From Puniceicoccales bacterium (GTDB lineage Bacteria; Verrucomicrobiota; Verrucomicrobiia; Opitutales; JAIRLM01): a stretch of DNA of 64,000 nucleotides. This document shows positions 1 through 64,000 of the stretch, piece after piece. The notes beneath the pieces are model-generated. The model was not told the origin of the DNA. It did no database searches and saw only the letters and a program-made list of their open reading frames with translations. Position 1 is the stretch's first letter, and every line of letters begins with the position of its first letter. Location of the stretch: the NCBI GenBank assembly GCA_031268315.1, contig JAIRXK010000021.1, forward strand, positions 8,859 through 72,858, in the 5' to 3' direction. The position numbers and the translations under genes were made by a program.

Positions 1-115
1 ATTTTGCAGGGGATCGAATCTGACGATTGCCGTGGACGAAATTTTACTGTCCATGGAGGAAGACGGGGCACTGGAACAGCTCAAGGAAAAGTGGGGAATT
101 GGTGGAACTAGGTGA
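1..115 (+). CDS. periplasmic amino-acid-binding protein of an ABC transporter, C-terminal fragment (5' part off-window)
   Basis: Frame 2 is open from the window edge: ...IAVDEILLSMEEDGALEQLKEKWGIGGTR, stop TGA 113-115. This type of ending (..DG.L..L..KWG) is usual for family-3 solute-binding proteins. The ORF abuts the permease and ATPase genes. Confidence 0.5.
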   Translation, partial: FCRGSNLTIAVDEILLSMEEDGALEQLKEKWGIGGTR

Positions 116-61700: not shown

Positions 61701-64000
61701 CGTTGGATTGGGCGCAATCGGTAAGTTTTGCCTGTAATTTTTCGGATTCACGCAAAAAATAGTGCACTTCATCTTTTTGTGCATGCTTTTCTTCGGCAAA
61801 GTATTCCTTTACTTTTTCCCGTGAATTTAATTCCTTATCGCGCACTTTCTTCAGCACGACTAAGTGTGCATGTATCTGTTTACAAGTATCACCCGGAATG
61901 GAATCGCCGAGACATAGCTCAATGCTACCCCAGAGGAACTCCTCCTCATCAAGCGACATTCTTGCGGCCGTTGAGTAGACATCATAGCCGCTAAGATAGG
62001 ATTGAATTAGTTCTAAAAAAAATTTGCCATTGTACTTTCCGTCTTGGCACGGTTTTCCATTCGATTGCCACTTTAGCATATCCTTTAGTAGCTCTTTCAC
62101 ATTCGGAGAATTAGAACCCCATTGCAACATTCGCCCAATGGCCATAAGTACAAAATTGGCGCACTGCGGTGATCTTTCACTTCCATCCGCAAACCATGCC
62201 ATCATGTCGCGAAAAACCATGAGCTCATCATCGCTAATCGGTCCGTTCGCCGATAGAAAATTTAAATATTTCATTGCCTCTTCGTACTGTCCCTGTATTT
62301 GAAATGCTCTCGCAATGCGCAATGTCCCCAGTGGCGTATTTCCAGTCATTGGCTTTTCCAGAAAAATGAGCGGATCATACCCGTAGGACACTTCACCCAC
62401 GCACACGCTCTTATAAAAAGGCCCTTGGGCCCGCACTGGTCCAGTGAATGAAAATACATAGTTGTGCGATAGTCCAATGCGTCGGTAGTATTCGCCTCCA
62501 GGAATAAGGAATTTATAACTTTTCATGGAGTTTGAATCTACATTTTCGAAGCATAGATAATTATTAAACGCAATAAATGGGTTATAGATATAGCCGGAAT
62601 TTTCCATCGGCTTTCCGAAGGAATCCAATAGTGGCGTCGCTATGCCTTGGCATAATTTATAGCTCATATTACTATTCCATCTCCACGAGTAAGTTCCATC
62701 GCTTTCTTCGAATGCCACCAAAGCAACTTCATTGCCATTCGAATCCACTAGTCTCGGAAAAAAGATGCGCGTAATTTTCCCATTGCCATCGTAGAGAACG
62801 CCAATGCATCGTTCATTTTCAAAGTTAGATAGGGACGTTCCTTCGAAGTTGTTTAATACTTTCGATCTAAATGGCGAATCTCCATGAAAGGCAACAAAGC
62901 ACCCATTGTCCTGCGTGCGATTACTCTTTAATGCCCAGGTTTTTTTTCCGGAAATTTCCACTTCAACTGTTTCAAATAAAAGCTTTTTCGAAATTCCATC
63001 TTCATAAATTCTAATCTCGCCTTTTTTTCCTATAAAAATATTGAATTTATCACATAAAAAATATTCCGGCATGTATGCTAATGGGCTCTCAGGAAGGTAG
63101 CAAACATCCCGTATGGCATCTCGACCAAGGTAAAGCCATTGATTCCCATCACTATCTAAGTCGCAAAAAATGGAAACTTCACCCTTTTTTATGCGATTTA
63201 TTTCGATGGATCCATAACTCTCATCTTTACAAAAACACAAATTATCATTTCCAATAATGTCAAGTTGCCTATTGCGAAATAAATGCTTAATATCTCCGTT
63301 GTTGAGAAGGTCGGAATCGCATGTGCCGACCAATTTATTTTCCCTATAAATCGACAGAGTTAGGAGATCAACGACAGTATCACCACATTGGAAGATCGCC
63401 TTGCTATTTGATTCGTCATATTGCGTAAAATTCGAAATTACAAAACCGAAATGATCACACATTTTTCTAGCAATTCCTTCGGCAATAGCTGGATGTGCTG
63501 CCCAGTAATATTCAAGTGTCTCATGGGCATCGTTCGCTGCGTAGAGGCAACCCTTCGTTAGGCCATTGGGATCAAATCCCCTAAGCATGTAGCTATTCAA
63601 AACAAGTTCTTCAACATACTTGGCATCGACCGGGGTTTGCCAATTTTTCAAATTCAGTTCACCGGATTCTTCCACGGAATTTAATTCGAGCATATTGAGG
63701 ATGCATTCATTTTTCATAATAGCAATATAGTACTTAATATTACTATCACCATTCACCAAATGCATTGTATTTTTTTCGAGCTCCTCAATTTTTTTCATTT
63801 GGTTCGCTAAAGTCCTTGAAAGCATCTTGTAAATGTTTTCATCATCTCTGTGCTGGGCAATGATATTGCGTAAAACTAGAGACTTATAGTGCATCACCAT
63901 GGCCAAAGAGGAAACGCGAATTTGACTTACAGGTACGGCAGCATAGAATTTTTGAATGCCATCCATTTCCAATGCGTTGACTGCGTCAATTAGTTCATTG
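55735..64000 (-). CDS. giant protein G2, paralogue of G1; 5' end beyond the window (over 2,750 aa visible)
   Basis: The ORF stays open to the window edge. The edge residues NELIDAVNALEMDG align with G1 EELIDAVNELEHEG at 27123. Motif I MGSGKSKA (60757-60774). Motif II FDEIH (60337-60348). C-terminal hydrophobic domain LVVGLAIATVVSILVALLLLFGVFGSGILAAIAVPFGLIAAKIVIFGPGVVFLICTGLAY (about 55775-55975). Confidence 0.9.
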   Translation of the reverse strand, partial: NELIDAVNALEMDGIQKFYAAVPVSQIRVSSLAMVMHYKSLVLRNIIAQHRDDENIYKMLSRTLANQMKKIEELEKNTMHLVNGDSNIKYYIAIMKNECILNMLELNSVEESGELNLKNWQTPVDAKYVEELVLNSYMLRGFDPNGLTKGCLYAANDAHETLEYYWAAHPAIAEGIARKMCDHFGFVISNFTQYDESNSKAIFQCGDTVVDLLTLSIYRENKLVGTCDSDLLNNGDIKHLFRNRQLDIIGNDNLCFCKDESYGSIEINRIKKGEVSIFCDLDSDGNQWLYLGRDAIRDVCYLPESPLAYMPEYFLCDKFNIFIGKKGEIRIYEDGISKKLLFETVEVEISGKKTWALKSNRTQDNGCFVAFHGDSPFRSKVLNNFEGTSLSNFENERCIGVLYDGNGKITRIFFPRLVDSNGNEVALVAFEESDGTYSWRWNSNMSYKLCQGIATPLLDSFGKPMENSGYIYNPFIAFNNYLCFENVDSNSMKSYKFLIPGGEYYRRIGLSHNYVFSFTGPVRAQGPFYKSVCVGEVSYGYDPLIFLEKPMTGNTPLGTLRIARAFQIQGQYEEAMKYLNFLSANGPISDDELMVFRDMMAWFADGSERSPQCANFVLMAIGRMLQWGSNSPNVKELLKDMLKWQSNGKPCQDGKYNGKFFLELIQSYLSGYDVYSTAARMSLDEEEFLWGSIELCLGDSIPGDTCKQIHAHLVVLKKVRDKELNSREKVKEYFAEEKHAQKDEVHYFLRESEKLQAKLTDCAQSNGAALDEKFSSCNTVEADVVEMAKKTFKVKINDGDGEGNIFDSPDESNSPAPHYDIAEGIDSSEGIEAQEDMKSFEEEMNLGAQEQAKRQNDPFLKEDFFRNIGEDEVTNFVAFLEVQRSNLCDVIPEFLSEISNLLYAGKYESTFGAGKWRSANISEVIHHIFGYYAGGHRKKALDYIHGNNPSFKAENLDRLNELIENYISRINSMRHIQKTMDALNAFVKNKNGITWGMAASLIRSFRDSQLGKFDKTESGMHRKMIHRFSLILEMMSQIRLRPDQIEKIYFIFQAVQNGNKSGDEIATGALIQQLMGSGKSKALIPALVLMGLYMRKKRENDSDSHYFGYPVIVSHSTQLSSVIKELPAIFSELKIGVEAIKLDFQSLRSVKGMQFFRRKLKNMMKKRTHIPVFTSSDLMALLTLFNSYEANSDEGMEKYLSEYLEVMKLLKKCTGIFDEIHLTANPKEAFIVEAAPNGEKNIKSIEKNEINAVTDFIFNYLPKELLAACRCNQQSLIAQQELHNQLKKAIRNKLNAMKLSSENAKMLSEDDEELLIKFMAGELDGLSENDLSVEAQQERIHHIIEQFGSDQLKSILALRAMVTHFIPHCFQKVYNKDFGYDPETGNVVPYANSKPSMSKFQNPWEIICFSCLSAMVEGFSKKAISEFIIEFNIQMHREVAAGIKLNLSKSNKLFKEYFKHCQFGEDVIDLANIVKTDDRGNPYIPNDILEAIGQYAQTQEGHAVTIALIREICMNAAVWNPSSYGTSPSAIIENVFQSAIGATGTTYNRSAFPLCMKDNYSPQQGSLGAVCSKFVENNENKRSHIHAIAPETMIDEGEETSNDEPILTAKKLLQQWTKDIRRAHENGADASVNAEAMIKNLRIIVDSGCFLVSQEIRDVICDIAEFIRSAELDVTHIEWYDPQAKAFVIAEVWNILESENRNFPITVLNDAENQRPKSRDKIFTFLDAGHSVGSDPAMKQDGHGLMTANLHNMEMGAFTQSIMRERHFLGGPGQKMDLIVRKDALSEIEPTAKNDSDGTNFYGGSRQKELSISIIKHLVNNTTHDTIRQRARAVQIQLHELIVMIIKGWLVDDIENEGSKNQIELRKCFSEFLIEEKLFELNNWKYLQCLKSVRGVVGNDFARKMQRMTEILEKLKGKFSEEKYGKMQGDIEKINARAIESMDRIPEDEKFLVPLGSSGSEDFGHTDAILEEMQEAHVEVSVQQEQNEEMSVMQFVELENIMQEGNCNDRAISRNPTCLFEHLSQRESNQCNAYEYLQKQWSGDGEDSNLQTLAAHFHKFAGDGSQSMGLSKIKEEFSAFEKFFQNPFFNSFYYSKNFLQATKAELSVFHKSQICADDVLIVWNEDASDIKCVFVAKNDLSEIKKLIECGRLTNCYLATAYGNAHANTRAKLDAKVIEFLNDVKWMSNFFNGEIAELLKNEDKTCEILHGMGNFNEHSDAVHKFLMIRSNDAQECRKKIQNAEILCNEKVGNSILANAYAGLCAQGDEIVKMNINQFFDEVFSESGKGSISANVLKTVLKYGKKHINDNKKLTALMNRINSSESNRQDLIKDILAQFSDEEILSLLLRRNESSLKFLIEICTFILNNDSARIEDIRDPNMVALLTLISNEGNDQLRHPSLIDFIEILDPYEFNNLKELYAKFIHGISVDKEMSSAINCEIVEKLFNVTFGNDSNYNRQSKSCKQSNFNYVCAFLLCKMQKQQILDFILSVTSESEVNTMLICLKNNIIINTLNDLSPDDLTKLLNKYQNNPLLISKLLRTICERKDMEKFVSKEFAEEFLKAFDVKFSQKPEEKQMNFFFKNQNLLTAQLGLLDCCDGEISKMFRQKYFDLLNKAASANTQISEEIQVENDDWQIDRKNSQVNEEWMQIKNENTQNQSPIKVAISSVALIKKAKQGQYLVVGLAIATVVSILVALLLLFGVFGSGILAAIAVPFGLIAAKIVIFGPGVVFLICTGLAYARVIISPQKEPMALEA

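Follow-up and report, generated by a model that had tools for sequence, protein, structure and literature searches.

Compositional mosaic in a Puniceicoccales genome segment: AT-rich gene families that are probably resident, fast-evolving and duplicated within the lineage

The stretch of DNA analysed here, referred to throughout as the window, comprises 64,000 nucleotides of contig JAIRXK010000021.1 from a metagenome-assembled genome (MAG) of a Puniceicoccales bacterium (GCA_031268315.1), in which GC-rich housekeeping genes stand between AT-rich blocks of open reading frames (ORFs). Our analysis leads us to regard these AT-rich blocks as probably composed of resident, fast-evolving families that were duplicated within the lineage and lie at a lower GC equilibrium, rather than of recent imports. 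The observations that carry this interpretation are a mosaic resolved to single genes, paralogy of the AT-rich genes within the genome, deep divergence of the paralogues under purifying selection, probable homology of the giant genes to giants beside mutS in relatives, and a milder GC gap in related genomes. Under the proposed mechanism four families would have multiplied by duplication: family A (at least 10 copies), family B (one gene and a decaying copy), family C (helical-repeat proteins) and family D (three tail-anchored giants whose core would be a DUF3638-like P-loop/superfamily 2 (SF2) ATPase). Their low GC would represent the mutation-selection equilibrium of these genes in this genome, matching intergenic DNA, with the housekeeping genes kept at the clade-typical, higher GC at third codon positions (GC3). 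The families would look orphan because they diverge several-fold faster than housekeeping genes and because the closest genome is only about 60% identical in MutS, and their site of action would be the cell surface or a eukaryotic host.

Two compositional classes alternate gene by gene

The overall GC of the window is 40.9%, and its composition at the level of genes is strongly bimodal, with a standard deviation of GC in 1-kb segments of 0.055 against 0.016 from sampling alone, a 3.5-fold excess. The seven genes with a family assignment, which we term the core class, range over GC 0.47-0.565 and GC3 0.47-0.67 (pooled GC 0.521, GC3 0.579, GC at fourfold-degenerate sites 0.667), whereas the 20 ORFs without one, the accessory class, range over GC 0.34-0.47 and GC3 0.31-0.53 (pooled 0.390, 0.379 and 0.460, respectively). 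The gap between the classes amounts to 13 GC points and 20 GC3 points (Mann-Whitney p = 5e-6 for GC and 2e-6 for GC3), and with the core genes of the window as the sole genome reference the accessory genes are atypical in composition and codon usage in the manner of an island (p about 2e-6). The classes overlap slightly, at dprA (GC 0.470) and two small unassigned ORFs (0.470-0.471). The core genes, together with the two tRNA genes of the window, are as follows.

27-746, + strand: ATP-binding cassette (ABC) transporter permease of polar-amino-acid type (Pfam BPD_transp_1, NCBIfam EhuD-like); GC 0.514, GC3 0.60; start near the window edge
733-1413, + strand: ABC transporter ATPase of polar-amino-acid type (Pfam ABC_tran, NCBIfam GlnQ-like); GC 0.533, GC3 0.59
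13786-16272, - strand: mutS, with all five MutS Pfam domains and NCBIfam MutS at 885 bits; GC 0.513, GC3 0.556
19828-19902, - strand: tRNA-Lys(UUU) (ARAGORN and Rfam), between family B and dprA
19956-21191, - strand: dprA (Pfam DNA_processg_A 5e-69, NCBIfam DprA); intermediate GC 0.470, GC3 0.466
49689-49773, - strand: tRNA-Leu(GAG) (ARAGORN and Rfam)
51985-53367, - strand: mnmE (Pfam and NCBIfam)
53502-54617, + strand: M29 aminopeptidase (Pfam and NCBIfam)
54668-55639, + strand: RluA/RluD-type pseudouridine synthase (Pfam and NCBIfam)

The GC-rich blocks formed by these genes have a GC of 0.522 (1-1413), 0.513 (13786-16272), 0.470 (19956-21191) and 0.536 (51985-55639, in which the individual genes reach GC 0.535-0.565 and GC3 0.60-0.67). 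The AT-rich blocks lie at 0.414 (1602-13520), 0.392 (16459-19767), 0.375 (21359-49507), 0.432 (49952-51943) and 0.396 (55735-64000). The window holds about 10 composition switches in 64 kb, at or near gene boundaries. Accessory ORFs span 50.4 kb, or 79% of the window, and intergenic GC is 0.397.

These data bear out the central description of the initial annotation, which saw GC-rich housekeeping ORFs between AT-rich blocks, and do so at the resolution of single genes (per-gene and block GC, p about 2e-6). Its two hand counts are exact (32/60 G+C at 14101-14160 and 15/60 at 35041-35100), its estimate of about 53 of 64 kb as accessory agrees with AT-rich blocks that sum to 53,635 bp, and the identities it gave to MutS, DprA, MnmE, the ABC ATPase and permease, the M29 peptidase and the pseudouridine synthase are correct by Pfam and NCBIfam. 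Its further remark that GC-rich genes throw long shadow ORFs and AT-rich ones do not holds in its first half, with the cited example at 52606-53331 present, and fails in its second, as the AT-rich giant gene g1 also has one (33830-34528, 232 amino acids (aa)).

That the AT-rich blocks are accessory in the sense of non-conserved is likewise supported by protein searches. Three independent searches of 1.8-5.8 billion proteins with the products of AT-rich genes returned proteins of the source MAG only, save for four weak matches, all from a single search, which resemble repeat or low-complexity artefacts. Accessory ORFs matched no Pfam family, with the exception of one phosphatase domain and one weak MgtE_N/ARM-like match. 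The best MutS match outside the source genome is 61% identical, the species genomes and Joint Genome Institute (JGI) metagenomes scanned contained no relative, and the composition of the core genes, compared with that of relatives, stays typical of the clade.

Giant paralogues under purifying selection

The largest genes of the window belong to family D.

23961-39665, + strand: giant gene g1, a 5234-aa ORF with the ATG at 24000 as its probable start; GC 0.365
55735-64000, - strand: giant gene g2, encoding the C-terminal 2745 aa of the 3886-aa protein LBI69_02635 (100% match to P0121); GC 0.396

Gene g2 continues past the end of the window, and the ORF at 55735-63972 is accordingly incomplete, the TTG at 63972 not being its start. 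A third giant paralogue, of 3605 aa, is located on another contig of the MAG. The three giants are collinear, with 39-45% identity over about 3400 aa, and g1 and g2 are 49.6% identical over 2400 aa. Between g1 and g2 the nonsynonymous divergence (dN) is 0.39 and the synonymous divergence (dS) 2.1, giving a dN/dS of 0.19; these values indicate that the giants are functional proteins under purifying selection whose synonymous sites have turned over about twice since duplication.

The sequence of g1 contains the SF2/P-loop motifs RLRPDQ...LIQQLMGSGKSK at aa ~2116 and GIFDEIH at aa ~2259. The Pfam domain DUF3638 (PF12340) matches the window giants at E 0.056-0.12 and about 12 bits, below its cutoff of 31, with the weak match falling at the same place in all three paralogues. 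DUF3645 (PF12359) had no match at E <= 1 in P0121, P0122 or the giant of the relative L004 described below, and scanning the complete giants against Pfam at E <= 1 yielded nothing further. Searches of PDB sequences with the giant profile and with the DUF3638 region of the L004 giant found no match, and an AlphaFold2 (AF2) model of the giant ATPase region had a pLDDT of 41 and was unusable.

The last ~120 aa are conserved in all three giant paralogues, which have a C-terminal membrane anchor in common. Two C-terminal transmembrane segments are present in g1, and one in g2 (aa 2670-2688). The ends of g1 (39200-39665), of g2 (55735-56200) and of a 732-aa family C protein (21359-21560) each carry one or two hydrophobic segments in their last ~70 residues, which suggests a tail-anchor-like topology for all three proteins. 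Gene g1 also holds a private insert of ~1700 aa (aa ~3423-5106; 34227-39280) that is missing from both paralogues. No other part of the window is as AT-rich as this insert (GC 0.27-0.35), in which no domains or internal repeats were detected.

Probable relatives of the giants lie beside mutS in other genomes

We compared the window with the mutS loci of seven relatives (L001-L007), of which only about 150 kb of DNA was searchable. Five of these loci (L001, L002, L004, L005 and L006) form one group, with MutS proteins 79-89% identical to one another and about 59% identical to that of the window, and L003 and L007 represent further lineages. L001 falls within a whole-genome shotgun accession range described as termite-gut MAGs (PMC11257099). 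The closest sequenced relatives of the source lineage are termite-gut MAGs, and the MAG of the window would presumably be of termite-gut origin as well.

A giant gene is found directly downstream of mutS in L004 (13313-22442, more than 3043 aa) and in L005 (12620-20479, more than 2620 aa), both genes being cut by the end of the locus or contig. In the L004 giant, DUF3638 scores above the Pfam cutoff (E 7e-8, 32.5 bits against 31). Between the L005 giant and those of the window, BLASTP finds two collinear segments (E 3.5e-6 and 7.9e-6) and phmmer gives E 6e-7; the motif RLRPDQ..Q..MG.GK[ST] is common to the window giants and those of L004 and L005. The window giants are therefore probably homologous to the DUF3638 giants of the relatives, and this homology points to a vertical history in which the family probably predates the split of lineages whose MutS proteins differ by 40%.

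The comparison of L004 with L005 further shows how rapidly these genes change. Their giants are 53-57% identical, next to MutS proteins that are 89% identical, and dN is 0.33 in the giants against 0.061 in MutS, a 5.4-fold faster rate. A crude NG86 estimate of dS gives 0.78 for mutS and 1.85 for the giants, and the lower value for mutS fits constraint on core synonymous sites. Because the giants evolve this fast, only the ATPase motifs are expected to remain recognisable at the distance of the window genome, as is seen; fast evolution combined with the lack of close relatives makes the orphan status of these genes in part a failure of homology detection.

Both relatives also show the giant to be less GC-rich than the mutS gene beside it.

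L004: giant GC 0.479 against mutS 0.543; giant GC3 0.46 against mutS 0.60
L005: giant GC 0.515 against mutS 0.580; giant GC3 0.55 against mutS 0.67

Genes lacking a Pfam match lie 2-6 GC points and 5-14 GC3 points below Pfam-bearing genes in each of the four relatives tested. This AT shift is milder in the relatives than in the window.

Family A and a possible role in host interaction

The first AT-rich block (1602-13520) is occupied by five tandem genes of family A, all on the + strand, with GC 0.41-0.43 and GC3 0.38-0.42.

1602-4052, + strand: family A, 816 aa, with a phosphatase region
4414-5916, + strand: family A
6120-7895, + strand: family A
8132-10843, + strand: family A
11076-13520, + strand: family A

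An all-against-all comparison of window proteins places their pairwise amino-acid identity at 26-39%. All five have an N-terminal domain composed of helices followed by a beta-rich module, the repeated motif GFYN..G.C(S/A)TIAV..G..YNV, and repeat tails rich in P, Q and N. The AF2 model of the N-terminal domain (pLDDT 70) shows two helices followed by the beta-rich module, and this model found no fold match in the PDB. A profile of the domain run against 1.84 billion representative proteins gave 13 matches at E <= 0.001. Seven of the 10 matches looked up are LBI69_* proteins of the source MAG, and the remaining three, like P0130 (44 short stretches), resemble repeat or low-complexity hits, the only eukaryotic one being a low-complexity yeast match. 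Family A has at least 10 paralogues in the MAG, two of them with a tyrosine-phosphatase loop, and on a 47-kb contig of the same MAG a family A gene is once more accompanied by a giant. The families are spread over at least four contigs of the MAG, interleaved with core genes.

The phosphatase region of 1602-4052 (aa ~540-640) contains a complete Cys-phosphatase P-loop, HCNGGMGRS, which conforms to the HCX5R(S/T) loop of protein tyrosine and dual-specificity phosphatases (PTP/DSP). The protein scores 23.7 bits with Pfam Y_phosphatase (cutoff 20.9), lies below the cutoffs for DSPc (26.4 against 33.5) and Tc-R-P (24.8 against 27), and aligns across the P-loop with PDB phosphatases; its paralogue LBI69_04370, on another contig, carries HCNAGMGRS. 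These features make 1602-4052 a candidate for a secreted or host-directed phosphatase. In-frame tandem DNA repeats with units of 21, 24, 33 and 36 nt and up to 7 copies are present at 10592-10749, 11876-12022, 13147-13450 and 3786-3987. They encode the P/Q/N-rich C-terminal tails (for example NPQQFNPNPPT), and length variation of these tail repeats is likely.

A role of the families at the cell surface or in host interaction is probable. It is suggested by the phosphatase, the shared N-terminal domain with variable C-termini, the helical repeats, the Q/N/P-rich tails, the membrane anchors, the fast evolution and the copy number, and also by the way of life of related Opitutales, among them endonuclear and ciliate symbionts (PMC11257099), and by a parallel in microsporidia, whose large species-specific families include one with DUF3638 (PMC5423893).

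What sets the two GC levels

At fourfold sites A/(A+T) is 0.592 in accessory and 0.598 in core genes, and G/(G+C) is 0.454 and 0.423, respectively; the dinucleotide signature has the same shape in both classes (delta* 0.070), and accessory GC3 (0.379) is near intergenic GC (0.397). We modelled the giants with a two-state relaxation in which they move toward the core GC3 of 0.58 from the time of in-genome duplication, starting even from zero. The model predicts a GC3 of at least 0.42-0.50 for the giants, and the observed values are 0.36-0.40. Because these values fall under the minimum of the model, the low GC is read as an equilibrium of the giants' own and not as the fingerprint of a donor. 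The argument would fail only if every paralogue had diverged elsewhere and entered the genome on its own.

Repeat-induced point mutation (RIP) leaves TpA/ApT above ~0.89 and (CpA+TpG)/(ApC+GpT) below ~1.03. These indices are 0.61 and 1.70 in the accessory class and 0.41 and 1.68 in the core, and RIP-like mutation was rejected. Along g1, taken in segments of 100 codons, better conserved segments tend to have higher GC and GC3 (rho 0.55 and 0.51; p 0.007 and 0.014).

Resident families or imported DNA

A number of observations weigh against a resident origin. An AT-rich block lies on the 3' side of both tRNA genes, which is the classical position of an island. In L006 (10001-16998) only 3.1 kb separates mutS from mnmE, which lies on the other strand; lptF/G, an acetyltransferase gene and cinA stand between them, with recA next. 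In the window the two genes share a strand and have 35.7 kb between them, and this spacing means that much of what separates them there is a derived feature of this lineage. The homology of the giants depends on short segments, with an hhalign probability of 38-50% and about 12 bits for the window giants on PF12340. Vertical inheritance is shown for family D only; for families A, B and C and the singletons, the protein searches and the ~150 kb of relatives' DNA yielded no relative outside the MAG. The gap of 13 points in the window is about twice the largest species-level gap (7.2, PMC5303225). Finally, GC3 does not follow constraint from codon to codon, being 0.572 at invariant and 0.544 at variable codons of mutS, and 0.419 at codons for identical residues against 0.386 at differing ones in g1 (p = 0.12).

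In view of the last point we dropped the simple hypothesis that relaxed protein constraint lowers GC3, as neither mutS nor the giants show a codon-level effect. GC3 would then be set per gene or per region and not per site, which is compatible with synonymous-site selection or with GC-biased gene conversion confined to those genes for which recombination partners exist. Under the interpretation of resident families, the core GC3 would be upheld against AT-biased mutation by one of these, that is, by selection on synonymous sites or by gene conversion acting on genes that still recombine with homologues.

The strongest alternative is horizontal acquisition, in which blocks or family founders came from one or more unsequenced AT-rich donors, some of them settling beside tRNAs, with subsequent loss of the mobility genes and partial duplication. 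We consider this a possibility to be taken seriously, if a clearly less likely one. It would account for an atypical GC and GC3 that change at gene boundaries, for the AT-rich blocks 3' of tRNA-Lys and tRNA-Leu, for the lack of homologues of families A, B and C and of the tested singleton in relatives, for the gene-level behaviour of GC3, for the proximity of mutS and mnmE in L006, and for a gap beyond the usual core-accessory differences. The initial annotation, too, had spoken of AT-rich DNA that arrived, while noting that no integrase, transposase, phage or conjugation gene was visible. The latter statement is confirmed by Pfam and PHROG scans, which found no mobility family in any ORF searched, and the spacers (~5 kb of non-ORF DNA in total, the longest 582 nt) leave no space for an integrase or transposase. 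The arrival as foreign islands is unsupported, given the in-genome paralogy, the homologues of the giants near mutS in relatives and the absence of signs of mobility.

Further searches for a source outside the lineage were also negative. No exact repeat of 13 nt or more of the 3' region of tRNA-Lys or tRNA-Leu occurs elsewhere in the window, as an attachment (att) site would leave. A phage or plasmid origin of g2 was rejected on tblastn, which gave no match in phage or plasmid records. Among the accessory queries tested there was no PHROG hit below E 0.006; viral contigs held no relative of the giants or of a family A gene; and g2 and nine other accessory proteins had no PADLOC hit below E 0.001. 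The queries tested likewise matched nothing outside the MAG among 5.8 billion proteins. Measured by the tests that define them, the window is neither an integrative island nor a defence island nor a compartment of the RIP type.

Horizontal acquisition also has to contend with the distribution and age of the families. Their presence on at least four contigs amid core genes would require many transfers from one unseen donor lineage, a paralogue dS of about 2 would have erased the donor composition if the genes were duplicated in situ, family D has homologues beside mutS of relatives, and the fourfold-site bias is the same as in the core. The initial annotation had proposed synteny with close genomes as a check, and this comparison did find mutS and mnmE close together in L006. 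No two relatives have mutS in the same surroundings, not even those with 79-89% identity in MutS, and synteny is a weak test in this clade. For families A-C, an old import from an unsampled AT-rich donor followed by expansion is possible.

A more far-reaching reading, which we hold to be somewhat less probable still, extends residence to the genome as a whole. The bacterium would have a two-compartment, or two-speed, genome in which vertically inherited fast families occupy a separate, much lower GC equilibrium, with DUF3638-like ATPases shared or anciently exchanged with eukaryotes and the whole serving as the host-manipulation repertoire of a protist or termite symbiont. The separation of the compartments might arise if gene conversion biased toward GC, or synonymous-site selection, reached only genes that retain partners for recombination.

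Capture from a eukaryote is improbable. The DUF3638-like giants, and perhaps the phosphatase family, would in this case have come from an AT-rich host such as a gut protist and kept a host-like composition. Pfam describes DUF3638 as a eukaryotic domain. The literature we found on DUF3638/DUF3645 is all eukaryotic (fungi, microsporidia, Tetrahymena); the PTP/DSP phosphatase, the ARM/HEAT-like repeats and the Q/N/P-rich tails are features that eukaryote-like effectors typically have, and endonuclear and ciliate symbionts occur among related Opitutales (PMC11257099). No significant eukaryotic protein match was obtained, however, family A having only the low-complexity yeast match, and giants that predate lineages 40% diverged in MutS would make such a capture ancient and unable to explain the present composition.

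A chimeric assembly or bin mixing GC-rich and AT-rich organisms, which the origin of the sequence in a MAG might suggest, is hardly credible in the face of ~10 composition switches at or near gene boundaries in 64 kb, paralogues of the same family on both sides of core blocks, equal fourfold-site bias in both classes, and the independent occurrence, in relatives, of mutS next to a less GC-rich member of the giant family.

Other genes and repeats of the AT-rich blocks

The remaining accessory genes comprise families B and C and a number of unassigned ORFs.

16561-17498, + strand: family B, frameshifted partial duplicate, open only at 16823-17362 (DNA repeats D12, D14-D16 and D18)
17945-18409, + strand: small unassigned ORF between the two family B copies; core-like GC (0.47)
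18361-19767, + strand: family B, full-length gene, 49% amino-acid identity with the partial copy
21359-23557, - strand: family C, 732 aa, helical repeats and a C-terminal transmembrane segment (aa 672-690); GC 0.380
39987-47368, - strand: tight run of six genes (46967-47368, 46467-46970, 45118-46458, 43360-45114, 40846-43278 and 39987-40874); GC 0.37-0.47; repeat family D4
47632-48342, - strand: membrane-protein gene, 3 transmembrane segments; GC 0.432
48665-49507, - strand: membrane-protein gene, 1 transmembrane segment; GC 0.344
49790-51943, + strand: unassigned gene, 717-aa ORF, 1 transmembrane segment; intermediate GC 0.433, GC3 0.464

The family B duplication covers 1.1 kb (16561-17498 against 18564-19665) at 70-88% DNA identity, with a dN/dS of 0.47. 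The frameshift of the upstream copy is seen in three-frame translation, and this copy appears to be a decaying duplicate. We considered the pair as a guide to the direction of mutation, but GC-to-AT and AT-to-GC differences are symmetric (139 against 145) and therefore uninformative. The small ORF at 17945-18409 overlaps the annotated start of the full-length family B gene, which makes it probable that the start of one or the other has been miscalled.

Three genes, 21359-23557, 40846-43278 and 39987-40874, make up family C, to which 43360-45114 is weakly linked; the helical units measure ~65-75 aa. The first of these is similar to the other two and has sub-threshold Arm/HEAT matches only; an in-frame 135-nt tandem repeat at 21646-22058 (3.1 copies, 80% matches) produces a 45-aa repeat close to the C-terminal half of this 732-aa protein. 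The overlapping or nearly abutting ORFs of the six-gene run suggest that it is probably an operon. Within it, the C-terminus of 43360-45114 is MgtE_N/ARM-like by a weak match (MgtE_N, E 3e-6) and this protein had no PHROG match, 45118-46458 matched only itself among 5.8 billion proteins, and 46967-47368 is a small unassigned ORF with core-like GC (0.47). The product of 49790-51943 had no match in Pfam, NCBIfam or PHROG.

An intergenic repeat of ~70 nt occurs in three copies (4205-4273, 48587-48655 and 49588-49656) that are 71-84% identical and in one orientation, with the core AAAATTATCGCGCTTTCGTTCGCCTAGAGCC.CATTC.CA.CC. Two copies have an extra upstream segment in common, and one lies 30 nt from the 3' end of tRNA-Leu. 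Copies of the repeat flank the membrane-protein genes at 47632-49507, and its orientation relative to neighbouring genes is inconsistent. A structured RNA was considered and rejected, with no Rfam match and folding z values of -0.2 to +1.7.

Implications and comparison with known systems

A low GC content is commonly taken to betray foreign DNA, an interpretation that seems mistaken for at least the largest genes of this window. A resident giant family stays below the GC of neighbouring housekeeping genes in three genomes and evolves fast enough to look orphan, which is a warning for composition-based island callers and for counts of orphan genes in poorly sampled lineages. The window also offers a concrete system for asking what holds core GC3 above the mutational equilibrium, with paralogues and orthologues of known divergence placed amid core genes. 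Lastly, it provides candidates for host interaction in uncultured Puniceicoccales, namely a phosphatase-bearing family of at least 10 members and DUF3638-like membrane-anchored ATPases of 3600-5200 aa.

Fungal two-speed genomes, in which RIP produces AT-rich, effector-bearing isochores, resemble the window in setting a housekeeping compartment of normal GC against AT-rich, duplicated, fast-evolving genes. They differ in that the window alternates gene by gene and not by isochores, has non-RIP indices and contains no transposons. Genomic islands at tRNA genes have in common with the window an atypical composition, blocks at two tRNA 3' ends and cargo of a host-interaction-like type, whereas the window has neither a mobility gene nor direct repeats, is interrupted by single core genes, and carries in-genome paralogues, one family of which is present in relatives.

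Expanded host-interaction families are also found in the effector repertoires of Legionella and Chlamydiae. Like such families of intracellular microbes, those of the window are large, lineage-specific, fast-evolving and modular, with a eukaryote-like phosphatase, repeats and membrane anchors; unlike them, they match no described effector family, and their effector role is putative. The known DUF3638/DUF3645 giants have in common with the window giants their size, the central SF2-like ATPase and the motifs RLRPDQ..Q..MG.GK[ST] and DEIH, and the window giants show collinear similarity to the DUF3638 giants of the relatives. The window proteins differ in scoring ~12 bits against a cutoff of 31, in lacking DUF3645, in being bacterial and in having a C-terminal membrane anchor.

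The closest parallel is the general gap between core and accessory genes. Reportedly, the ORFan literature of Daubin and Ochman already deals with AT-rich, fast-evolving orphan genes of bacteria. The higher GC of core genes is a documented general trend, with a gap of 0.3-7 GC points in 36 species and a largest value of 7.2 (PMC5303225). As in that trend, conserved genes of the window are more GC-rich, restricted genes are fast-evolving and unannotated, and relatives show the same direction; in the window, however, the gap is larger, and the restricted genes, which are multi-copy and encode as many as 5234 aa, take up 79% of the sequence. With gene families that are themselves uncharacterised, the window is an unusually strong and fine-grained case of the known core-accessory trend.

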